Below are positions 1,359-30,933 of a stretch of DNA of 64,000 nucleotides, one piece after another. Each line of letters opens with the position of its first letter. The stretch's first letter is position 1. Both the position numbers and the translations under genes were made by a program. This DNA is from a virus, in the IMG/VR virus record IMGVR_UViG_3300045971_000247, positions 2,313 to 66,312 of that record. One strand, 5' to 3'. A model generated the notes under the pieces. That model did no database searches, had not been told where the DNA came from, and saw only the letters and a list, made by a program, of their open reading frames with translations.

Positions 1359-1391
1359 AAAAAAGAGCCGGCGCAAGGCCGGCTCTAAAAA
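1359..1391 (-). terminator. Intrinsic terminator between the sigma gene and the major capsid gene
   Basis: AGAGCCGGC-gcaag-GCCGGCTCT stem followed by T6 on the minus strand. Confidence 0.7.
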
Positions 1392-1423
1392 GACTGAGTA
1401 CAGTCTTGTGAGGAGCTTAGATG

Positions 1424-2278
1424 TCAACCCCAACGAACGCCTGCGAAGGCCAACACATCCGCCGACGGTGAGGGCGTAGTCAGTTCTGGTGCTGGTTCCG
1501 GTCGGCGTTTCCCTGGTCGTGTTTGCGCCTGGACGTACTCGACGATTCGCCTTTCGGCCTGTCCGAGCAGCTGACTGATTCGGGCGCCGCTCACGCCGTG
1601 GATCTGGGCGATTTCGTTCTGCGTCAGGTCGTCGTCGTAGGTCAAACTCCAGACGCTGCGCTCACGTTCAGAGAGGGCTTCGAGCGCCTGCTCGATCCAT
1701 ACGACGAGGTATGCAAGATCCAGCCGTTCAGCCGGCGGGTCGCCGCGTGTACCGGCACCATGCCGGTCGAGGTAGTCCTCGACGTCCTCGCCCTCGTAAT
1801 CCTCCATGTCGACCAAGCTCGCCGCTTGCGCCTTCAGCGCCAAGGCGTGGTAGTCCGGCAGCGGCAACCCCATCTCAGCTGCGACCTCGCTGTCGCTGGC
1901 CGATCTGCCCAGGCGTTGTTCTGCGGCCCGCATGGCCGCCTCGATCCGACGGCCGTCACGCCGGTCTCCGCGGCTCATCCAGTCGTTGCCCCGCAACTCG
2001 TCGAGCATGGCGCCGCGGATGCGCTGGGTGGCGAAGGTCTCGAACTGCACCCCCTGGGCCGCATCGAAGCGCGACAACGCGTCGCTCAGGCCGATCATGC
2101 CCACCTGGATGAGGTCGTCGAGTTCGACGTTGGCGGGCAGTTTGGCAATCATCTGGTTGGCTAGGCGCCGGACCAGCGGTCGGTGCTGTTTCAGCAGAGC
2201 GCCCAGCTGGTCACGGCCAAGAACAGCGCCGTCGCCGCCGCCATCAGTTCTGGCAACAGCGGCAGGCGCCCGGTCCAT
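1424..2278 (-). CDS. fliA: Phage-encoded FliA/WhiG-family (sigma-28-like) RNA polymerase sigma factor
   Basis: Region 2 LPANVELDDLIQVGMIGLSDALSRFD...FETFATQRIRGAMLDELR and region 4 LSERERSV..LTY..DLTQNEIAQIHGVSGARISQL. Confidence 0.9.
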   Translation of the reverse strand: MDRAPAAVARTDGGGDGAVLGRDQLGALLKQHRPLVRRLANQMIAKLPANVELDDLIQVGMIGLSDALSRFDAAQGVQFETFATQRIRGAMLDELRGNDWMSRGDRRDGRRIEAAMRAAEQRLGRSASDSEVAAEMGLPLPDYHALALKAQAASLVDMEDYEGEDVEDYLDRHGAGTRGDPPAERLDLAYLVVWIEQALEALSERERSVWSLTYDDDLTQNEIAQIHGVSGARISQLLGQAERRIVEYVQAQTRPGKRRPEPAPELTTPSPSADVLAFAGVRWG

Positions 2279-2282
2279 CGTG

Positions 2283-2549
2283 TCACCGCAGCACGGGCTG
2301 GAATGGCAGCATGTCTGGCGCGGTGATCTGCCGGTGCACTGCGGCTGCCGCAGCGGCCACGGTCGTCACGGCGTCGACCAGAGCCTGACTGTAGGCCCCG
2401 ACCGGGATGGCTGCGATCTGCGCTTCCAGGGCGGCCACGGCTGTTTGCAGTGTGTCGATCGTGGATTGCAGGCCGGCGATCAGCGGGATGTCGGCGTTGA
2501 GGGTCGTGGTGGCAACGCTCAGGGCAGCGATCATTTCGGCTTCGGTCAT
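2283..2549 (-). CDS. Hypothetical Ala-rich coiled-coil protein
   Basis: 88 aa ORF with AAGGA RBS, packed in the operon. Confidence 0.6.
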   Translation of the reverse strand: MTEAEMIAALSVATTTLNADIPLIAGLQSTIDTLQTAVAALEAQIAAIPVGAYSQALVDAVTTVAAAAAAVHRQITAPDMLPFQPVLR

Positions 2550-2559
2550 GGTCCGTCCT

Positions 2560-3228
2560 TTATTGAGTGCAGACGGTCATCGTCTGCGGGGTGGCAGCAC
2601 CGGTGAAAGTGCAATAGGTGCGCGATCCGATCACCGTCTTGGCCGTGCAGTCGCACGCCACGCCGAGGCGAACGGTGCCGGCCAGCCCACCGAGGGCGCC
2701 GGCGCGGACAGTGAATGCAAGCGTGCTGGCCGTCTTCCAAGCTGGCGCTGCGGGCGGCTGCGGCCGACCGGCCCAAATAGTCGGCCACGCTGGGCACCAC
2801 ACGGGGGTCATGCTCGGGTCAGCCAGAGGCTTGGTGACGTATAGGGCGGACAGCCGCGCGATGTCGACAGCGCTGGGCTGCGGGCCGGCTTTCAGGAAGT
2901 CCAGCAGCATGGACGGCGTGGCCGCCGATGCGGCGAGAGCGCCCCACTGCGGCAGCCACGTCTGGTCTGCTTGCTGGCAGTAGCGCCAGGACGTGATCCC
3001 TGCGGAGTTGGCGCTGTACTGAACCGGTGTCGCAGCGGCGCACGTTGGTGCGATGGGGGCCACGTAGTCCCGGTAGACGTAGTAGCCATTGGTCGGCTGG
3101 ACGTTGCAGGGGTTTGACAGCGCGGGCGCGCTCGCTGCCTGGGCCATGACCGACAGCGGCAGCGCCACCAGCAGCAGGACGATGAGGATCACCAGCAGGA
3201 TCGGCAGGTAGGTGTGCTTGCGGTACAT
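2560..3228 (-). CDS. Cys-rich exported or membrane-anchored protein
   Basis: Start MYRKHTYL followed by a long hydrophobic signal/TM segment and AQA; several Cys. Confidence 0.65.
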   Translation of the reverse strand: MYRKHTYLPILLVILIVLLLVALPLSVMAQAASAPALSNPCNVQPTNGYYVYRDYVAPIAPTCAAATPVQYSANSAGITSWRYCQQADQTWLPQWGALAASAATPSMLLDFLKAGPQPSAVDIARLSALYVTKPLADPSMTPVWCPAWPTIWAGRPQPPAAPAWKTASTLAFTVRAGALGGLAGTVRLGVACDCTAKTVIGSRTYCTFTGAATPQTMTVCTQ

Positions 3229-3230
3229 GG

Positions 3231-3752
3231 TCAAGCCTTCGGGCGCGTGGTGAAACTGTCGATGCCCTTGCCGATCTGCCGCAGGCCCGAATAGGCCCAT
3301 GGGAGCGCCAGCAAGATGCCAAGAATCGTGATGTCGGGTACCGGTCGCGTGAACACGTAGGCGATGCCAGCGGCCAGCCCGACCCAAGCCTGCAATGGCC
3401 GCGTCCAGCGCACCAGTCGGTCTTCAGCGTTGTCACCAGAGCGGACGGTCTTGCCGGTCTCCTCCTGCTCGGCCTGCAGATCCTTGAGCCGCAGTTCTTC
3501 CATCGCGCGGATGTGCTCGCGGATGCTGGCGTCGTTCTGCACCGCGAGTTCGCGCAGCTTCAGCATGGTCCCCGGGTCGGTCTGTAGGGCCGATAGGGCT
3601 TTGTCGGGGAGCCCTTCGCCGGTGGCCCCGGTAACGAGGGAGACCCCCGCAGCGACAGCGCCGGGGATGTTGCCGGTCAGCAGCGAGCCGACCAGCGCTG
3701 CGCCGGTGCCGGCGTTGTTTGAGAGCCAGTCGCCTACTGTCTTCCAGTCCAT
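3231..3752 (-). CDS. Putative holin (GTA-type 3TM holin-like)
   Basis: Adjacent to endolysin; WTRPL, hydrophobic C-terminal helices and YSGLRQIGKG ending. Confidence 0.65.
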   Translation of the reverse strand: MDWKTVGDWLSNNAGTGAALVGSLLTGNIPGAVAAGVSLVTGATGEGLPDKALSALQTDPGTMLKLRELAVQNDASIREHIRAMEELRLKDLQAEQEETGKTVRSGDNAEDRLVRWTRPLQAWVGLAAGIAYVFTRPVPDITILGILLALPWAYSGLRQIGKGIDSFTTRPKA

Positions 3753-3753
3753 G

Positions 3754-4227
3754 TCACACCTCCGTTAGCGTCTGCGCGGCCCGTCGAATCCACCCCCGGC
3801 CGAAGCGCGCCCAGCGGGCGTCGTCGATGTCGGTGTAGTCGCACAGGCGCGCCGCGGTGAACCGGAAAAGCACGCGCTGCCACGGAGCAGACTGCAGGGC
3901 TTGCAGCGTGAGCGGCCCGAGGATGCCGTCCTCTGTCTCGCCGACGCCGTGCTGCAGCGCCTTGATCGCGGCCGTCACGCCCTGGTTCACGCTCATGTCA
4001 AACAGCGGGTATTTGAGCTGCTCCGGCGCCGCATCACAGCCGGCCGGGCCCCAGTAGTCGCGGCGGTAAATCTCCTTTGCGCGATCCAGCGTGAGAGAGG
4101 GGATGTCCTCCCCTGGATGGGCGCGCTTGGAGATTCCAAAACGGGTGGCGCCTCCGGGATCAAGGGGATCGTTCGTGTACGAACCCTCGCTGCCGACGAC
4201 GCGCCTGAAAGCTTCGTCGAAGTTCAT
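3754..4227 (-). CDS. Endolysin, glycoside hydrolase family 108 with peptidoglycan-binding domain
   Basis: EGSYTNDPLDPGGATRFGIS motif, DGILGPLTL, FGRGWIRR. Confidence 0.9.
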   Translation of the reverse strand: MNFDEAFRRVVGSEGSYTNDPLDPGGATRFGISKRAHPGEDIPSLTLDRAKEIYRRDYWGPAGCDAAPEQLKYPLFDMSVNQGVTAAIKALQHGVGETEDGILGPLTLQALQSAPWQRVLFRFTAARLCDYTDIDDARWARFGRGWIRRAAQTLTEV

Positions 4228-4511
4228 GGCAGCGCCCCGGCGTACATCACGACCGACATCACGACGCCCGGCGCTGTCGTAGCGGCTGCGTCCCACACGT
4301 CGACCGTGTGCATCCCAGGAGACTGCTGGTTGTCACGCCAGTCGCAGAATTCTTTCGTGATGCCGGCGACGAGCCCGCACAGTGCCGGCGTTGCGACGAT
4401 GCCGGCGAACGGCACGACGCCGAACACGACGAGGACGAGATAGACAGCGCACCCGCACAGCGCGGCGCAGAGGCCGGCGACGAAGTGCTGGAGTTTGTCG
4501 GTGATGGTCAT
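4224..4511 (-). CDS. Small membrane protein
   Basis: DKLQHF..G motif and hydrophobic helices; start follows AAAGGA; stop overlaps endolysin start. Confidence 0.65.
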   Translation of the reverse strand: MTITDKLQHFVAGLCAALCGCAVYLVLVVFGVVPFAGIVATPALCGLVAGITKEFCDWRDNQQSPGMHTVDVWDAAATTAPGVVMSVVMYAGALP

Positions 4512-4525
4512 GGCGTTCCTTTCGG

Positions 4526-5521
4526 TTAAATCACATCGCCGCGCATCCGCGCCAGCTGGTCTTCGCTCAGCGCACTGAAGTCCTTGTAGGACATCTTCAG
4601 CACGTCCTTGGCGCTGATGACGCCGCCATCCTTGTCGCTGTCCATGCCGACGCGGGACACCGACGGCGGGGTCTTCTTCGAAGCGTCCAGTGCCTTCTCG
4701 ACAGCGCCCTTCTTCCGCTCGGCGGCCACGTCCTTCGCATCCACCTTCGGCGTGACGGTCGTGGCGACCTCCTGCTTCGTCGTCTCGGCGCCCAGCAGCT
4801 TCTTGACGGCCTTCTGGAGCGCGTCGGTGGGCGTCATGCCCTTGCGCTCGTACGTCACCTTCAGGTCGGCCACGTCGGTCAGCATCTCGCTGTCGAAGTC
4901 GCCGTGGTCCGGGTTCAGCACCGGGTACGCCTGCTCGACGCGCTCCAGGCTGATGTTGTAGCGGGCGCGCTCGGTGGCGCGGGCTTCGGCTTCGGCGATC
5001 TTGAAGTCGCTGCGCTGCTCGTTCATCTGCCGCTCGGCCCGGCGGATGTCGCGCATCAGATCCGTGGCCTTGTCGACCTCGCCGTCGGCCAGGAGCTTCG
5101 TGTACTCCTTCTCCATGCCCAAGACCTTCGCCTCCAGCGCGGTCAGGTCGGCGTTGATGTCGGCCACCTGTTTGCCGGACTGGAACTTGGCAAGCTCGCG
5201 CTCGGCCTCCTTGCGGGCCTCGCGCTCCTTGTTCAGGAGGGCTTCGTGGCGGTCCAGAGGGATGCGCTTGGGCGACTTCTTCTTGTCGTCCTTGGCCTCG
5301 TCCTTCTCTTCCTTCTCTTCGTCGGCGTCGTCAGTTTTGTCCTCGACCTTCTCTTCGGCCTTGTCCTCGACCTTCTCGTCGGCCTTGTCCTCGACCTTCT
5401 CGTCGGCGTCGTCCGTCGGCGTGAAGTCGTCGCCGCGGTCGACAGCACCGCCGCCCGTGTTCTCGACGATGCCGGGGCTCAGCGCCCAGGGGAAGGCCTT
5501 CAGCAGCCAGTGGAGTTTCAT
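4526..5521 (-). CDS. Capsid scaffolding protein
   Basis: Acidic N-terminus, RIPLDR motif, coiled coil; follows the portal. Confidence 0.75.
   Translation of the reverse strand: MKLHWLLKAFPWALSPGIVENTGGGAVDRGDDFTPTDDADEKVEDKADEKVEDKAEEKVEDKTDDADEEKEEKDEAKDDKKKSPKRIPLDRHEALLNKEREARKEAERELAKFQSGKQVADINADLTALEAKVLGMEKEYTKLLADGEVDKATDLMRDIRRAERQMNEQRSDFKIAEAEARATERARYNISLERVEQAYPVLNPDHGDFDSEMLTDVADLKVTYERKGMTPTDALQKAVKKLLGAETTKQEVATTVTPKVDAKDVAAERKKGAVEKALDASKKTPPSVSRVGMDSDKDGGVISAKDVLKMSYKDFSALSEDQLARMRGDVI
5337..5407. repeat. 24-bp tandem repeat x3 in scaffold gene (EKVEDKAD/AE/TD)
   Basis: TTGTCCTCGACCTTCTC recurs with a 24-bp period. Confidence 0.8.
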
Positions 5522-25440: not shown

Positions 25441-25664
25441 AGACGGCATACACGATGGAAGAAATTGCTGAAGACCACCCGCAGTGGAAAGCGTACGCCG
25501 CCGGCTACGCCACGACGGTCCTGAATGTTCTGGATGACACAGGTCTTCTAGACGAAACACAACTGCGTTGGCTCTCTCAGTTCGAAGGCTCTGCACGCGA
25601 AATCTGCAATCGCCTGATCGACGCCTACACCGTAGACGAAATCACCAAGAAACTCACCGCATGA
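25437..25664 (+). CDS. Hypothetical protein ending ITKKLTA
   Basis: GGAG RBS; GTGA and ATGA coupling. Confidence 0.6.
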   Translation: MKTAYTMEEIAEDHPQWKAYAAGYATTVLNVLDDTGLLDETQLRWLSQFEGSAREICNRLIDAYTVDEITKKLTA

Positions 25665-27052
25665 AACCCTTCGCCCATCAACTCGTCAGCCTTAAGCACA
25701 ACGAGACGACGGACATCGTCTTCGACTGCTCCGACGCTGGCACCGGCAAGACAGGCGTGCGGGTTTTTCGCTACGCCAAGCGCAAGAAGAAGAAAGCCGG
25801 CTGCATGCTCGTGCTCGGCCTGCGCTCTACGCTGCGCTCCGTGTGGGAATCCGACTTCAAGAAGTTCGCACCCGAAATCACGACCTCTGTAGCCACAGCC
25901 GCTAACCGCGAAGCCGCATTCGCCAAGGACGTCGATGTCTACATCACGAACCACGACGCAGTGAAGTGGCTGGCTAAGCAAAAGCCAGCGTTCTGGAAGA
26001 AGTTCGACGAAATCGTCGTCGACGAGTCGGAGTTCTTCAAGCACTACACCAGCCAGCGCAGCAAGGCCCTGCTGAAGCTCGTCAAGCACTTCAAGTACCG
26101 CACGTGCATGACCGCCACGCCCAACGACAACACCATCGTGGACGTGTGGCATCAGGTGCTGCTGCTTGATAACGGTGCGCGACTGGGCCGGCTGTACTTC
26201 CCGTTCCGCAACTCCGTGTCCACGCCCGTCCAGGTCGGCCACAGTGCCAACATGGTTGAGTGGCGTGACAAGGAAGGCGCTGAAGACGCTGTGTTCGGTC
26301 TCCTGTCCGACATCGTGGTCCGCCACCGCCTGGACGACTGCGCCGACATCCCAGAGAACCACCAGTACCCGCTGATGTACGAGATGTCCACGCCACAGAA
26401 GAAGGCCTACATGCAGATGGAGGCCAGCAAGATGCTCGACCTGGGCAAGCTCGGCGGCGTCACAGCCATCAACGCGGCTGCGGTCGCCACCAAGCTCCTT
26501 CAAGTCGCTTCAGGCGCGGTCTATGACGGTACAGGCAAATACGCCGTCATCGACACCAGCCGCTATGAACTCATCCTGGACCTCTGTGAACAACGCAAAC
26601 ACCCGCTCGTCCTCTTCCAGTGGAAACACCAGCGCGACCTGTTGGTTGCTGAAGCCGAAAAGCGAGGCAAGACCTTCGCGGTCTTCGACGGCGACACCAC
26701 CGACGAAGAGCGCTTCAACATCGTGCAGCGCTACCAGCGCGGCCAGTACGACGTGCTCTTTGCTCACCCCAAGACCGTCGGCCACGGCCAGACCCTGACC
26801 CGCGGCACCTCGACGATCTGGGCCTCACCCACCCACCTCGCTGCTCAATTCCTCCAGGCCTCGTCCCGCCAGCGCCGCATTGGCCAGACGGAGAAGACCG
26901 AGACCGTGGTCATCATCGCCGAGGGCACGACTGATGAGTGGGTCTACGAGAACTGCATGCGCAAAGACGGGCGCATGAAGAGCCTGCTGGAGTTGTTTGC
27001 CGGGAACACGCCGGTGCCGACAAAGTCAACCAAGACGAAAGCCATGGCATGA
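25661..27052 (+). CDS. SNF2-like superfamily 2 helicase
   Basis: DAGTGKT, VVDESE, MTATP, GHGQTL, QASSRQRRIGQ. Confidence 0.9.
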   Translation: MKPFAHQLVSLKHNETTDIVFDCSDAGTGKTGVRVFRYAKRKKKKAGCMLVLGLRSTLRSVWESDFKKFAPEITTSVATAANREAAFAKDVDVYITNHDAVKWLAKQKPAFWKKFDEIVVDESEFFKHYTSQRSKALLKLVKHFKYRTCMTATPNDNTIVDVWHQVLLLDNGARLGRLYFPFRNSVSTPVQVGHSANMVEWRDKEGAEDAVFGLLSDIVVRHRLDDCADIPENHQYPLMYEMSTPQKKAYMQMEASKMLDLGKLGGVTAINAAAVATKLLQVASGAVYDGTGKYAVIDTSRYELILDLCEQRKHPLVLFQWKHQRDLLVAEAEKRGKTFAVFDGDTTDEERFNIVQRYQRGQYDVLFAHPKTVGHGQTLTRGTSTIWASPTHLAAQFLQASSRQRRIGQTEKTETVVIIAEGTTDEWVYENCMRKDGRMKSLLELFAGNTPVPTKSTKTKAMA

Positions 27053-30000
27053 ACTGGAAAACAGCCATCCGCAAGGCCACGCAATACATCGTTCCCGAAT
27101 TCGCTCGGCCGATCTTTCGCTCCAAAGACGTCGACTGGGACCGCCTCGTCTCCATCGACTTCGAGACGTTCTACGACGATGACTACACGTTGTTGAAGCT
27201 CTCCACGTCGGAGTACGTGCGCGACCCGCGCTTCAAGGCGCAGATGCTGTACCTCAAGGTCGGCCGCAAGCCTGCCCGCATCATCCCGCCGAACAGAATT
27301 GCCACCGAACTGCGCAAGATCAACTGGGCCACACATGCGCTCCTCTGCCACCACACTCAGTTTGACGGTCTCATTCTTAGCCATCATTACGGCGTCGTAC
27401 CTTCTTTTTACTACGACACCCTCTCTATGGCCCGTGGTCTGCACAGCAACGAAATCGGTGCTGGGCTGGACGAAGTGTCCATGTACTACGGCGGCGCCGG
27501 CAAAGTCCAGGGCGTCCTGGAGACGACAAAAGGCGTACTCAACTGGAGCCCTGAACTGTTCAAGCGGGTGACACCGTATTGCCAGAACGACGGCGACGAA
27601 ATGCTGCGGGTCTTCGAAGAGATGATCTACGCGCTGCCTGAAGAAGAAGTCGACCTCATCAACGTCATCGTCCGCATGTTCTGCGACCCAGTGCTGGAGA
27701 TTGATCGGCCACGGGTCGAAGCCGAACTGGCGCGAGAGGTCAAGGAACGGGACGAACTGCTCACCGGCATAGTCAACACAGCCGCTTACTACGAAGACAA
27801 GACCGTGCTGAAGACGAAGGCCGAACGCGCACTGGTCGGCAAAGAGCGCGACCTTCTGATCGCCAAGCGCATCCTGGGCAGCAACGAGAAGTTCGCCGGG
27901 CTGCTGCTGGACGAAAGCGTCGACCCACCTGTCAAGCTCAGCCCGGCCTGGATGAAGAAGGACAAAGCCGCGCGTGAAGCCGACCCTGAAGGCAAGTGGA
28001 CCTACGCGTTTGCCAAGGACGACATCGAGTTCCAGAACCTGCCTGACGTTCAAGAACGGTGGCAGAGCATCTTCGACCTGAATGACACCAAGCAGGTCAA
28101 GCTGGCCGCTGAGAAATCCATCCGCCTGCGCGCCCTGGTCGACGCCCGCATCGCTGTCAAGTCGACGACAAACATCACCCGGGCCGAGCGGCTGCTGACC
28201 GCCAGCACCAACGGCATGCGGCTGCCGGCCTACTACGCCTACAGCCGCGCCCACACCCACCGGCTGGGCGGCGGCGACAAGCGCAACCTTCAGAACCTGA
28301 AGCGCGGCGGTGAGCTTCGCCGCTCAATTCGCGCCCAGAAGGGCCATGTCCTGGTCGTCGGTGACTCTGGTCAGATCGAGGCCCGCACAAACGCATGGCT
28401 GTGGCGCCAGGACGACCTCCTGACGATCTTCCGCAACAAGGGCGATCCGTACTGCGACATGGCCTCAGTCGTCTACGGCCGCATCATCACCAAGGCCGAC
28501 GCCACCGAGCGCTTCGTTGGCAAAGTTTGCGTCGCTGGAGACACCCTCGTATTGACAAACCATGGTGTTAAGTCTATCGTCGATGTACGATCTAATGATA
28601 TGCTATGGGACGGTACAGCATGGGTGCTCCACGACGGACTTGTCCGCCAAGGAACGAAACAAGTATTCAGAAGGCACGGCTTCGCCGCCACACGGGACCA
28701 CGAAATCCTGACGGAACGTGGGTGGCAGGAGTGGTCCGCGGTCCTTACCGACCCTTCCCTTTTTCAGTCGGCGCTCAATTCGGCGACCTCACCGTTGTAC
28801 GTTGGGAACACTACGTTTCCAGAGACGGGAAACCTTGGGGTTACCGGCCTGTATGCAGATGCACCTGCGGTGCTGAAAACATGGTCTATGTCAGCAGCCT
28901 CAAAGCTGGCCGCAGCACTCGGTGCAATTCATGCGCCAAAGTCGCCGCCGCCACTAAACGCTACTGGGCCTACAAACACGCAATGGCCAGCGACGAGCAC
29001 CGTACTCGGTTGCTCAATCGACTATCGTCAGCAATCGCTCGTTGTGCAAACCCCAACAACGCTTCGTACAAACATTACGGACTGCGGGGCATTTCAGTGG
29101 CTGCTGAATGGCGTGCAGATCGCGCAGCGTTTCTTATCCATGTTCAAACTTTGCCTGGATGGGACGATCCGACGCTTGAACTCGACAGAATCAACAACAG
29201 CGGCAATTACGAACCGAACAATATCCGATTTCGCTCGAAGGGCGCCAACATGCGCAACCGCCGTAAAGTCGAAGACTTGGAACAGCGCATCCGCGACCTT
29301 GAGCGAGACAACGCAGACCTACGATCTCGCAAACGCAGGACCTAACTGTCGATTTACTGTCCTGACAGAAGCAGGTCCGCTGATAATTCACAACTGTGTT
29401 CTTGGTCTGGGCTTCCAGATGGGCGCCAAGAAGCTCCAGATGACCCTAGCCAAGGGCGCGCTCGGTGGCCCGCCGGTGTTCATCACCTTGGCTGAAGCCG
29501 AGCGCTGGGTCAAGCTGTACCGCAACAAGAACCGCAAGATCGAAGCCGGCTGGCGCATCTGCACCGGCATCATCGAAGACATGGCCGCGGGACGTACCGG
29601 CGCGCACGGGCCGATCAACTGGGAAGCCAACAAGGTCTGGCTGCCCAACGGGATGTGCCTGCACTACCCCGACCTGAAGAAGGCCGTGGGCGACCAGGGC
29701 TTCGAAGAGTGGACCTACGGATCGACCCTCAAGGGCACACCGATCCGCAAGAAGCTCTACGGCGGCCTGCTGTGTCTCGGAGCAGGCACACAAGTCCTGA
29801 CCGACAACGGCTGGAAATCTATCGTCGAAGTGCGATCTGATGATAAAGTATGGGATGGTACTAACTGGGTGGAGCATTCAGGTGTCATCTACAAAGGCAA
29901 AAAGCAAACCATCGACTTCGGCGGTGTGCGCATCACCGCCAACCATGAAGTCCTCGTCGAGGAAACGTGGCTCCCCGCTGGATGCACATCCCACAGTGCC

Positions 30001-30933
30001 GCTACATCATCGTGCGAAAGACATTACGGGGCTGCGACACGGTGCGCTGATAGCAGTGTCCCCGTGGGGCAGCAACGGAAGAAGAACACTGTGGACACTC
30101 CAGTGCAATTGCGGAATGCGCATTACCCGTTCAGCAACCGAGTTTCAGAAAGGCCGCACAAAAAGTTGCGGATGCCAAACCTCTTCGCTCATCTCCTTCA
30201 GCATATCAACCCATGGCATGTCCAAACATCCGACGTTTCACGTATGGCGGGGCATGCTGGACCGGTGTCAACTGCCTACACATCAATCATGGGCGCGATA
30301 CGGAGGGCGGGGCATCACAGTATGCGCGGCGTGGAGTTCGTTCGCCGCGTTCTGGGCAGACATGGGCTCGACCTACAAACCCGGTCTCTGTCTGGATCGC
30401 AAAGACAACATGGCGGGCTATTCACCCAGCAATTGTCACTGGGTCACGTACAAACAGAACAGCCGCAACACTCGTGCTCAAGCACTTATCAATACACCTA
30501 TCGGGCTGATTCCGTTGTGGCAGGCGTCGGAAATTTCGGGAATCAACAGCTCCACTCTCTCCTACAGGCGGGACGCAGGATGGTCAGCCGAACAGATGTT
30601 TCTCCCCCCGAAGACGTCTACGACCTAGTTGACGCGGGACCGCTACGCCGATTTACTGTTCGTGGCGACGACGGCAGACCTTTCATCGTCCACAACTGCG
30701 AGAACATCGTTCAGGCCCTGGCCCGCATCATCGTGCTCTACCAGCTGCTCGAACTGAGCAAGACGTACCGTGTGGTCATGACGACGCACGACGAAGGCGT
30801 GCTGCACGTGCCGAAGCGCCAAGCCGAGTTCGCCTTCCAACGCATGATGAAGGCGATGACGACGCCGCTGCCCTGGTGCGAGGATCTTCCGCTGTCCGCC
30901 GAAGGTGGGTACGCGGAGGACTACAGCAAGTGA
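27049..30933 (+). CDS. polA: Family A DNA polymerase (3'-5' exonuclease plus polymerase) with two inteins; 1294-aa precursor, 697 aa after splicing
   Basis: IDFET exonuclease motif; motif A DSGQIEAR; motif B RFVGKV|CVLGLGF; YGGLL|CENIVQA; motif C THDE. Confidence 0.95.
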   Translation: MNWKTAIRKATQYIVPEFARPIFRSKDVDWDRLVSIDFETFYDDDYTLLKLSTSEYVRDPRFKAQMLYLKVGRKPARIIPPNRIATELRKINWATHALLCHHTQFDGLILSHHYGVVPSFYYDTLSMARGLHSNEIGAGLDEVSMYYGGAGKVQGVLETTKGVLNWSPELFKRVTPYCQNDGDEMLRVFEEMIYALPEEEVDLINVIVRMFCDPVLEIDRPRVEAELAREVKERDELLTGIVNTAAYYEDKTVLKTKAERALVGKERDLLIAKRILGSNEKFAGLLLDESVDPPVKLSPAWMKKDKAAREADPEGKWTYAFAKDDIEFQNLPDVQERWQSIFDLNDTKQVKLAAEKSIRLRALVDARIAVKSTTNITRAERLLTASTNGMRLPAYYAYSRAHTHRLGGGDKRNLQNLKRGGELRRSIRAQKGHVLVVGDSGQIEARTNAWLWRQDDLLTIFRNKGDPYCDMASVVYGRIITKADATERFVGKVCVAGDTLVLTNHGVKSIVDVRSNDMLWDGTAWVLHDGLVRQGTKQVFRRHGFAATRDHEILTERGWQEWSAVLTDPSLFQSALNSATSPLYVGNTTFPETGNLGVTGLYADAPAVLKTWSMSAASKLAAALGAIHAPKSPPPLNATGPTNTQWPATSTVLGCSIDYRQQSLVVQTPTTLRTNITDCGAFQWLLNGVQIAQRFLSMFKLCLDGTIRRLNSTESTTAAITNRTISDFARRAPTCATAVKSKTWNSASATLSETTQTYDLANAGPNCRFTVLTEAGPLIIHNCVLGLGFQMGAKKLQMTLAKGALGGPPVFITLAEAERWVKLYRNKNRKIEAGWRICTGIIEDMAAGRTGAHGPINWEANKVWLPNGMCLHYPDLKKAVGDQGFEEWTYGSTLKGTPIRKKLYGGLLCLGAGTQVLTDNGWKSIVEVRSDDKVWDGTNWVEHSGVIYKGKKQTIDFGGVRITANHEVLVEETWLPAGCTSHSAATSSCERHYGAATRCADSSVPVGQQRKKNTVDTPVQLRNAHYPFSNRVSERPHKKLRMPNLFAHLLQHINPWHVQTSDVSRMAGHAGPVSTAYTSIMGAIRRAGHHSMRGVEFVRRVLGRHGLDLQTRSLSGSQRQHGGLFTQQLSLGHVQTEQPQHSCSSTYQYTYRADSVVAGVGNFGNQQLHSLLQAGRRMVSRTDVSPPEDVYDLVDAGPLRRFTVRGDDGRPFIVHNCENIVQALARIIVLYQLLELSKTYRVVMTTHDEGVLHVPKRQAEFAFQRMMKAMTTPLPWCEDLPLSAEGGYAEDYSK
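28528..29394 (+). mobile_element. Intein 1 (289 aa) in polymerase motif B
   Basis: Starts CVAGDTLVLT; block B TRDHEILT; block F TYDL; ends IIHN followed by +1 Cys. Confidence 0.95.
28722..29345 (+). CDS. HNH-type homing endonuclease in the -1 frame inside intein 1 (start uncertain; frame open from at least 28605)
   Basis: GAQFGDLTVV, CRCTCG, RCNSC, YKHYGLRGISV, LDRINNSGNYEPNNIRF...NMRN. Confidence 0.88.
   Translation: MAGVVRGPYRPFPFSVGAQFGDLTVVRWEHYVSRDGKPWGYRPVCRCTCGAENMVYVSSLKAGRSTRCNSCAKVAAATKRYWAYKHAMASDEHRTRLLNRLSSAIARCANPNNASYKHYGLRGISVAAEWRADRAAFLIHVQTLPGWDDPTLELDRINNSGNYEPNNIRFRSKGANMRNRRKVEDLEQRIRDLERDNADLRSRKRRT
29773..30696 (+). mobile_element. Intein 2 (308 aa) at YGGLL|CENIVQ
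   Basis: Starts CLGAGTQVLT; block B TANHEVL; block F VYDL; ends IVHN followed by +1 Cys. Confidence 0.95.
29945..30628 (+). CDS. HNH-type homing endonuclease in the +1 frame inside intein 2 (start uncertain; frame open from at least 29840)
   Basis: DITGLRHGAL, QCNCG, KSCGC, THGMS, WRGMLDRC, YGGRGITVC, LDRKDNMAGYSPSNCHWVT..QNSRN, C-terminal HTH-like GINSSTLSYRRDAGW. Confidence 0.9.
   Translation: MKSSSRKRGSPLDAHPTVPLHHRAKDITGLRHGALIAVSPWGSNGRRTLWTLQCNCGMRITRSATEFQKGRTKSCGCQTSSLISFSISTHGMSKHPTFHVWRGMLDRCQLPTHQSWARYGGRGITVCAAWSSFAAFWADMGSTYKPGLCLDRKDNMAGYSPSNCHWVTYKQNSRNTRAQALINTPIGLIPLWQASEISGINSSTLSYRRDAGWSAEQMFLPPKTSTT

Follow-up and report, generated by a model that had tools for sequence, protein, structure and literature searches.

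The family-A DNA polymerase gene (polA) of a virus from a pond metagenome contains two paralogous class 1 inteins, each of which has very probably been colonised by an independently translated homing-endonuclease gene that is out of frame with the polymerase. The gene lies in a stretch of 64,000 nucleotides (nt) taken from IMG/VR record IMGVR_UViG_3300045971_000247 (positions 2,313 to 66,312; this whole stretch is called the window below), and the source record of 66,312 bases is rated 100% complete. Read in the polymerase frame, both inteins pass without a stop through a long middle part that holds no recognisable domain; read in a second frame of the same strand, that middle part is an intact gene for an HNH-like nuclease. 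Variation among relatives follows the polymerase frame at the two ends of the inteins and the nuclease frame between them, and the nested layout is found in most of the related viral loci that we examined.

A polymerase gene with two inteins and two nested open reading frames

The polymerase frame has no stop from 26938 to 30933 (1331 codons), running through both inteins and both nested open reading frames (ORFs). Its product matches Pfam DNA_pol_A (E 2.6e-09) and the DNA polymerase family phrog_17 (E 5.4e-48), and both inteins split conserved polymerase motifs. The features of this gene are listed here by position; for the nuclease genes, dN/dS and pN/pS denote ratios of nonsynonymous to synonymous change, and pLDDT is the per-residue confidence (predicted local distance difference test) of a structural model.

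27049 to 30933, plus strand: family-A DNA polymerase precursor, with the frame open from 26938.
28528 to 29394, plus strand: intein 1, class 1, 289 amino acids (aa), in polymerase motif B, between GKV and CVLGLGFQMG.
28528 to 28707 (approximate end), plus strand: N-terminal splicing region of intein 1, constrained in the polymerase frame.
28722 to 29345, plus strand: nuclease gene 1 (HNH-like), in the -1 frame relative to the polymerase, from phrog_374 and dN/dS.
29293 (approximate start) to 29394, plus strand: C-terminal splicing region of intein 1, blocks F and G, constrained in the polymerase frame.
29773 to 30696, plus strand: intein 2, class 1, 308 aa, between ...LYGGLL and CENIVQALAR.
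29773 to 29991, plus strand: N-terminal splicing half of intein 2, residues 1–73, from pLDDT and variation at polymerase codon position 3.
29992 to 30591, plus strand: linker of intein 2 as read in the polymerase frame, residues 74–273, stop-free, unstructured and unconstrained.
29996 to 30628, plus strand: nuclease gene 2 (HNH-like, 210 aa), in the +1 frame relative to the polymerase, from phrog_374 and pN/pS.
30592 to 30696, plus strand: C-terminal splicing half of intein 2, blocks F and G, residues 274–308, pLDDT about 90, beta strands.

An initial annotation, made from the sequence, had described both inteins as having intact splicing motifs, and these are indeed present: Cys1, block B TRDH and a terminal IIHN followed by Cys in intein 1, and Cys1, block B TANH and a terminal IVHN followed by Cys in intein 2. 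Across 18 aligned inteins, C1, T55, H58, H307 and N308 are invariant, and three relatives end in SN then C instead of HN then C. The two inteins of the window are paralogues, their N-terminal halves being 48% identical over 66 residues (E 7e-22). The annotation had also described the part between the splicing blocks as stop-free and devoid of a recognisable domain, which agrees with our results: the polymerase frame has no stop there, no Pfam or NCBIfam domain was detected in the polymerase-frame middle of the inteins, and this part is predicted to be unstructured (see below). Weak rows for INO80F, DUF6745 and I-TevI_ZnF in the Pfam and NCBIfam scans of the inteins and nested products were disregarded.

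The frame of nuclease 1 is open from 28599 to 29345 (listed ORF 28605 to 29345, stop TAA at 29343–29345) and that of nuclease 2 from 29801 to 30628 (listed ORF 29840 to 30628, stop TAG at 30626–30628). Both nested ORFs terminate within intein block F, as had been described, 49 nt (nuclease 1) and 68 nt (nuclease 2) 5' of the intein end. Their products match the 'HNH endonuclease' family phrog_374 with E 2.2e-36 and 2.9e-51, respectively, and further PHROG families of the same name (phrog_3377, phrog_2081), and the motifs C.CG, YG.RGI and LDR...Y...N are present in the nuclease alignment. The description of a complete HNH-family nuclease in another frame is thus upheld as regards the intact ORFs, the PHROG families and the quoted motifs; a canonical HNH enzyme it is not, as it matches no Pfam HNH model and has Arg in place of the catalytic His. 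Nucleases 1 and 2 are more distant homologues of each other (29% identity over 149 residues, E 3e-12) than the inteins that surround them, and the use of different frames in inteins 1 and 2 is compatible with two independent invasions and also with a frame change at a later time.

Upstream, ATG 27049 (Met38 of the ORF translation) is the probable polymerase start. It overlaps the TGA of an SNF2-like helicase ORF (25568 to 27052) in the tetranucleotide ATGA (27049–27052), an arrangement that suggests translational coupling between helicase and polymerase.

Selection switches frame inside the inteins

Inteins and nucleases resembling intein 1 and its nuclease are referred to here as type 1 (HNH1), and those resembling intein 2 and its nuclease as type 2 (HNH2). 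For type 1, the window was compared with two relatives (L020 and L021) in an ungapped alignment of 867 nt. Substitutions peak at codon position 3 of the polymerase frame at intein nt 0–179 and 765–854, and at codon position 3 of the nuclease frame between nt 179 and 765. Within this middle part, dN/dS in the nuclease frame is 0.09 and 0.12 (the third pair being saturated), with 72–73% aa identity, and in the polymerase frame it is 1.28–1.49, with 40–45% aa identity. The N-terminal splicing region behaves the other way round, with dN/dS of 0.28–0.59 for the polymerase frame and of about 1 for that of the nuclease.

The same switch of frame is seen among 15 type-2 inteins, at codon columns 75 and 275; as read in the polymerase frame, mean pairwise aa identity falls from 0.51 and 0.62 at the two ends to 0.26 in the middle. 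The 15-sequence type-2 sets omit a near-duplicate of phage APSE-1 (L011), a truncated contig (L012) and two loci with shortened nuclease frames (L015 and L019). For the sub-lineage to which intein 2 of the window belongs (with L033 and L035), uncorrected pN/pS over the nuclease coding sequence (CDS) is 0.35–0.47 in the nuclease frame and 1.35–1.54 in the polymerase frame. Because variation is frame-specific in this manner, we regard the intein middle as a nuclease gene in which the polymerase frame is constrained only against stops. The initial annotation had named homologues' frames and per-frame dN/dS as a check, and on both counts the outcome, constraint of the nuclease frame in the middle part and open frames in the relatives described in the next section, agrees with its reading.

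To gauge how often the polymerase frame would stay open by chance, the nuclease protein was held fixed and its synonymous codons were redrawn from the usage of the polymerase exteins, in 3000 trials per case. Of these 3000, the polymerase frame was left without a stop in 12 for intein 1 and in 28 for intein 2. Extein control windows of equal length and offset were open in 0 of 486 cases for intein 1 and 0 of 459 for intein 2. Four GenBank phages with the same layout, introduced below, were resampled in the same way (open frames: PVP-SE2 0, APSE-1 0, GB2A 3 and SFCi1 23, each out of 3000), and extein controls across the window and these four phages yielded no open window among 412–525 per case. 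In APSE-1, at 45% GC, 12 stops are expected in the polymerase frame across the nuclease and none is present. Stops in the polymerase frame are selected against.

The nested layout is widespread among phages

A blastn search of the polymerase gene against phage records returned only five short matches, of 86–104 nt, which pointed to Jerseyvirus. The Jerseyvirus PVP-SE2 (L001) has a nested nuclease at the intein-1 site in the -1 frame, and APSE-1 (L002), Caulobacter phage GB2A and Shewanella phage SFCi1 have one in the intein-2 region in the +1 frame. These four GenBank phages range from 45% to 62% GC, and the hosts of GenBank phages with this layout are Hamiltonella, Salmonella, Shewanella and Caulobacter. 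The site and frame relation of intein 1 also occur in L020–L022. Among the viral loci found with nuclease 2, all 15 of 15 have it nested in a longer ORF with intein junctions; among those found with nuclease 1, 4 of 11 are nested and the other seven, at 30–44% identity, are free-standing.

A profile survey of IMG/VR extended these observations. We examined the best 80 of 189 matching stretches, which contain 70 distinct nuclease DNA sequences. The nuclease frame is stop-free in 80 of these 80 loci and the polymerase frame in 78, and the third frame in none (median 11 stops). A nuclease fused in frame with the intein was found in 0 of the 80.

Existing records of these phages treat the region in different ways. 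In APSE-1, the nested ORF is annotated as P46 from an internal ATG at 3364, and the conserved GTG of the family lies at 3136 (3136–3786). The polymerase of Jerseyvirus PVP-SE2 (L001, 1563–4661) is recorded as one plain CDS with no intein note, and its helicase is flagged as intein-containing. For the APSE polymerase intein, differential loss has been reported, in a passage that makes no mention of a nested nuclease (Rouil et al. 2020, PMC7313666).

The intein ends form a predicted Hint fold and the nested product is a candidate PacI-like enzyme

We modelled intein 2 in its polymerase-frame reading with AlphaFold, using an alignment of 18 sequences. Residues 1–73 (pLDDT 76–97 per 10-residue block, all beta strands) and 274–308 are confidently predicted, and residues 74–273 have pLDDT below 50 and are predicted to be unstructured. 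These boundaries coincide with the points at which selection on the intein frame switches. When the model was compared with 48,161 PDB chains, the top 33 rows were all inteins or Hint domains, the best match being the gp41-1 intein (Z 13.9, root-mean-square deviation (rmsd) 2.3 over 106 residues). According to the model, the N- and C-terminal parts of intein 2 form a Hint fold, and intein 1 is likened to it through its 48%-identical N-terminal half.

Three parts make up the model of nuclease 2 (mean pLDDT 82): an N-terminal region rich in beta strands, which holds the C.CG and CGC motifs, then the core, and finally a C-terminal region of helices. The best PDB match of the core (model residues 74–160) is the HNH restriction enzyme PacI (3m7k; Z 6.2, rmsd 2.2 over 73 residues, 22% identity), and an invariant Tyr (Y142) lies in the loop corresponding to the catalytic Tyr loop of PacI. 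PacI lacks a catalytic His, uses a loop Tyr instead and is placed in His-Me finger group 20 (Jablonska et al. 2017, PMC5714182). We therefore consider the nested product a candidate PacI-like His-Me-finger enzyme, on the strength of this model. A search of the family profile against PDB gave I-HmuI at E = 1 only, and a phmmer search of nuclease 2 against PDB sequences gave viral proteases only, at E about 1, which were disregarded.

The two types differ at their C-termini. Nuclease 1 and its type-1 relatives carry a charged helical tail (EDLEQRIRDLE...RSRKRR; window 29230–29342), and type-2 nucleases end in a part that resembles a helix-turn-helix and weakly matches the I-TevI DNA-binding domain (Z 3.4) and the LCoR helix-turn-helix (E 0.87).

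Candidate signals for separate initiation of the nuclease

In 12 of 14 type-2 relatives, an ATG or GTG codon stands immediately 5' of the conserved nuclease sequence HHRAKDITG, and 7 of those 12 have a Shine-Dalgarno (SD)-like motif (GAGG, GGAGG, AGGAGG or AGGA) 7–9 nt upstream. This motif is built from the intein's own conserved E-G-W codons. Start codons could be scored in 50 of the 80 surveyed loci, the anchor motif HHR not being found in the other 30; ATG or GTG occupies that place in 37 of the 50 and another codon in 13, and an SD-like motif is present in 20 of the 37.

In the window, the start of nuclease 2 appears to have moved. About 27 extra nt, common to the window (29973–29999), L033/L034 and L035, lie between the conserved Trp codon and the nuclease N-terminus, and a remnant ATG there (in ...CTGGATGCAC...) no longer shares the nuclease frame; the start codon has thus apparently been relocated in this sub-lineage. 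The closest relatives, L033/L034, have an ATG two or three codons upstream, and that of L033 aligns with GTG 29996 of the window. On comparison of these sequences, GTG 29996 is the best-supported start of nuclease 2, followed by ATG 29945. Nuclease 1 may begin at GTG 28722 or 28731, which are kept in 4 of 5 type-1 inteins, or at ATG 28605 or 28620, and the stretch between the ATG and the GTG candidates shows no selection in the nuclease frame.

A promoter and terminator scan of 28300–30900 gave one promoter-like and one terminator-like site, compared with 0.9 and 2.2 in shuffled sequences; the promoter-like site (28552–28580) was rejected, as it is not kept in type-1 relatives. RNA folding at both start regions revealed no special structure (z-scores 0.34 and -0.37).

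Free-standing, split and decaying forms, and empty sites

Many free-standing relatives of the nuclease occur in unrelated phages, and one locus combines such a gene with an intein-free polymerase. In L081 (1390–4018), an intein-free polA (open frame 1390–3369) is followed by a free-standing nuclease (open frame 3215–4018). At the place where other loci have the intein, the L081 polymerase reads GGKFTAELVQATARD.

A second locus, L057 (2053–4935), has its polA split at the intein, with both splicing halves intact. The ORF for the N-terminal polymerase and intein parts ends at 4021, 88 codons into the intein, and an intact nuclease ORF occupies 3938–4618. The ORF for the C-terminal intein and polymerase parts begins just before block F, with an ATG at 4615 that overlaps the TGA of the nuclease (ATGA). 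Here the polymerase frame contains 22 stops across the nuclease. By its sequence, L057 is apparently a naturally split intein whose gap is occupied by an HNH-like nuclease, and it is a natural control, displaying what the polymerase frame looks like when it is free to close.

Two APSE-like loci, L015 and L019, have shortened nuclease frames. The intein frame is open in L015, and the polymerase ORF of L019 has only 383 codons left. In both loci the nuclease seems to be decaying, and so does the polymerase in L019. Tentatively, and with somewhat more doubt than confidence, we suggest that one nuclease family and one pair of polA target regions may preserve every proposed stage of an intein-endonuclease, namely the free-standing (L081), nested (the window and 78 of 80 loci), split (L057) and decaying (L015 and L019) forms.

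Empty sites accompany filled ones. The closest polymerases, those of L020 and L021 (59–60% extein identity), carry intein 1 and have an empty site 2, where IYGGLL is followed by CENIVQALARIIV and the flanks match the window; conversely, site 1 is empty in APSE-1, GB2A and SFCi1. Related inteins occur at four nearby sites, GKV/C, GKTTILG/C, GGKx/CEN and GGKxxEN/C, in which the slash marks the junction. In two pond-metagenome runs (X1 and X3), small contigs match the 32 nt just after site 2 (30703–30734), preceded by KKIYSGLLNE; as a weak observation, they may stem from a related polymerase whose site 2 is empty and is followed by Asn, not Cys, at the +1 position.

A model and its alternatives

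In our model, ribosomes translating the polymerase would read through the nuclease gene in the 'wrong' frame and so produce a linker of roughly 200 unstructured residues, and the flanking N- and C-terminal Hint halves would fold together, excise the entire insert and restore an intact polymerase. The nuclease would be made separately, by internal initiation just after block B, with termination inside block F, and would be a His-Me-finger-type enzyme flanked by zinc-ribbon-like and helix-turn-helix-like domains. It would presumably cut the intein-free polA of co-infecting phages, whereupon repair would copy the intein together with the nuclease gene into the empty site (homing). A separately made nuclease, with an intein that removes its meaningless translation from the polymerase, had already been put forward in the initial annotation, and the frame-specific selection, the start codons of the relatives and the layouts of L057 and L081 are in line with that proposal.

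Several observations weigh against this model. The splicing domains are barely detected by intein hidden Markov models (HMMs): of the curated models, only TIGR01445 responded, and only to intein 1 (E 0.047; 14.7 bits, against a cut-off of 24.5), and a Pfam scan of both inteins at E up to 10 found no intein family. The type-1 selection test comprises three sequences, and synonymous sites of type 2 are near saturation. At the family's usual start, nuclease 2 of the window has CTA and the extra nt described above; neither GTG 29996 nor ATG 29945 has a good SD motif, and the start of nuclease 1 is ambiguous among its four candidates. The nuclease frames of L015 and L019 (3934–4851) have 169 and 161 codons compared with about 220 elsewhere, meaning that such genes do decay. 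As to the enzyme, Pfam (E up to 10) and NCBIfam HNH models gave no match to the nested products, so that an HMM search, also named as a check in the initial annotation, bears out the HNH assignment in the PHROG families, fails to do so in Pfam and NCBIfam, and leaves the intein model below its cut-off. The PacI match of the modelled core is modest, and Foldseek found nothing in PDB at E <= 0.001, its top rows, PacI (E 0.11) and I-HmuI (E 0.41), being non-significant; for these reasons, nuclease activity is only inferred. In the alignment with I-HmuI, the catalytic His of the VDH motif is matched by an invariant Arg (R135 of the 210-aa product), and because Arg thus replaces the general-base His, we do not class the nuclease as a canonical HNH enzyme.

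Part of this evidence could also be read as inactivation. If the nested ORFs of the window were recently inactivated relics, the inteins would amount to mini-inteins whose long linker is junk, and nuclease production would have ceased; the loss of the family's usual start codon in nuclease 2, the lack of a good SD motif there and the decayed frames of L015 and L019 all favour such a history. We nevertheless find it unlikely. Both ORFs are full length and stop-free, nuclease 2 of the window retains 46 of the 47 columns that are invariant in 14 relatives, and its start, judged from the ATG of L033 at the position of the window GTG, was relocated within the sub-lineage. Purifying selection is also evident, both in that sub-lineage (pN/pS 0.35–0.47) and for nuclease 1 (dN/dS about 0.1).

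A second alternative accepts an active nuclease and assigns it to the service of the phage, whether by exclusion of competitors' polA or in replication or recombination, with the intein as a tolerated parking place. The free-standing copy beside an intein-free polA in L081 would suit this idea, as would the many free-standing relatives in unrelated phages. Yet the nuclease is tightly linked to one pair of polA insertion regions, being nested in 78 of 80 loci, and the pattern of empty and filled sites fits homing, so we judge this alternative quite improbable, although the two roles are not mutually exclusive.

Programmed ribosomal frameshifting at both ends of the nuclease would instead yield a canonical in-frame intein-endonuclease, and such a fusion is geometrically possible, as the frame of each nuclease extends into the splicing blocks on either side. 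It would, however, take a -1 shift and a return shift in intein 1 and a +1 shift and a return shift in intein 2, and no slippery heptamer of the form X_XXY_YYZ was found in the relevant zones of the window. In 9 of 14 type-2 relatives, moreover, the nuclease frame opens only 18 nt before the conserved ATG or GTG with its SD-like motif, which leaves little room for frameshifting. A polymerase frame kept free of stops would be needless if ribosomes left that frame, and the nuclease stands as a gene of its own in L057 and L081. Frameshifting is therefore very improbable, and we retain the model of a separately initiated nuclease.

The remaining alternative concerns the accuracy of the sequence. 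In the Logan assembly of a possible source run, the entire gene is covered with no differences, and in a run of another study, the eight listed pieces, which reach into both nucleases and take in three of the four junctions, show no differences or gaps; a joint 27888->29455 in run X2 was discounted, as its shorter side has only 22 letters. That compensating sequencing or assembly indels pushed an in-frame endonuclease out of frame, which the initial annotation had argued against and had proposed to check by read mapping, is practically excluded because the four GenBank phages and 78 of 80 surveyed loci share the layout and both the independent assembly and the second study's run are free of indels, and the open polymerase frame would then remain an unexplained coincidence.

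Relation to known inteins and nested endonucleases

Inteins with an endonuclease in another frame are already in print, so that the novelty implied in the initial annotation does not hold for the arrangement as such; the kind is known, and rare. Gosselin, Arsenault and Gogarten describe 63 actinophage inteins with non-canonical endonucleases, among them an endonuclease-VII-like gene 'in reading frame 3 relative to the intein' (bioRxiv 10.1101/2025.01.02.630785). Their inteins share with ours a contiguous intein frame, a nuclease encoded on the same strand in a second frame that lies between the splicing blocks, and an in-frame middle without recognisable structure, and the origin that they propose is invasion by a free-standing homing endonuclease. 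Their cases come from actinophages, with DNA polymerase III alpha, minor capsid, terminase and thymidylate synthase exteins, whereas here the window is a pond-metagenome virus, the relatives include phages of proteobacterial hosts and the extein is a family-A polymerase. Their nuclease matched endonuclease VII (1E7D, Z 6.5), and ours is PacI-like and lacks the His. The presence of two inteins in one gene with nucleases in different frames, and the conserved start with an SD-like motif in the relatives, also set the present case apart from theirs.

Phillips et al. report a cyanobacterial dnaX intein with an out-of-frame LAGLIDADG endonuclease and trace the idea to Gorbalenya's 'Non-canonical inteins' of 1998 (bioRxiv 10.64898/2026.09.14.751524). 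As in our inteins, the overlapping frame is under purifying selection and dN/dS is raised in the intein frame, and secondary invasion of a mini-intein is proposed; their example concerns a cellular gene, a LAGLIDADG enzyme and one site, and ours phage polA, a putative His-Me-finger-type enzyme and at least four sites. In ShiLan (Arsenault et al. 2025, PMC11855218), an HNH gene has likewise been inserted into phage methylases in a different frame, and the host ORF stays open; that system has no splicing domain and no detectable ribosome-binding site, in contrast to the Hint domain that surrounds the nuclease here and the SD-like motif of most relatives.

Fractured genes, described with GIY-YIG and Vsr-like nucleases and with HNH types predicted (Dassa et al. 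2009, PMC2677866), have an independent nuclease gene between the N- and C-terminal parts of an intein, which is exactly the layout of L057. The polymerase frame of the window differs in being contiguous, with no stops; consisting of one ORF and not two, it is not a fractured gene, and by sequence only L057 is one. The split and free-standing forms of this family thereby link contiguous with split inteins. In canonical intein-endonucleases, the LAGLIDADG or HNH domain likewise lies between blocks B and F, and homing is likewise presumed, but there the domain is in frame, whereas here the nuclease is outside the intein polypeptide. PacI, the best structural match to the nuclease core, shares with it the absence of a catalytic His and a Tyr in the loop that in PacI belongs to the beta-beta-alpha-metal motif, and differs in its N- and C-terminal domains and in sequence; given the low identity and Z score reported above, the nuclease is a candidate member of the PacI group.

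Our literature search, which covered main texts, turned up no account of such a layout for family-A polymerases, APSE or Jerseyviruses, or with this nuclease family. It has been overlooked in long-known phages such as APSE-1 and the Jerseyvirus. Gene callers and intein HMMs miss both intein and nuclease. The conserved start with its SD-like motif, the split form and the free-standing form support acquisition of the nuclease by invasion of independent genes; should the forms represent true transitions, the family would be a natural test bed for the acquisition of endonucleases by inteins and for the origin of split inteins. If the model is correct, a Hint domain can splice across a meaningless linker of 200 residues, with two frames used in one essential gene, which suggests for protein engineering that the Hint domains found here tolerate very long unstructured inserts. 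What the present case adds is that the layout occurs twice within a single essential gene, that the initiation signal is conserved, and that one family contains free-standing, nested, split and decaying forms side by side; the architecture is extended from actinophages and cyanobacteria to a large family of 189 IMG/VR stretches, with 78 of the 80 examined being nested.

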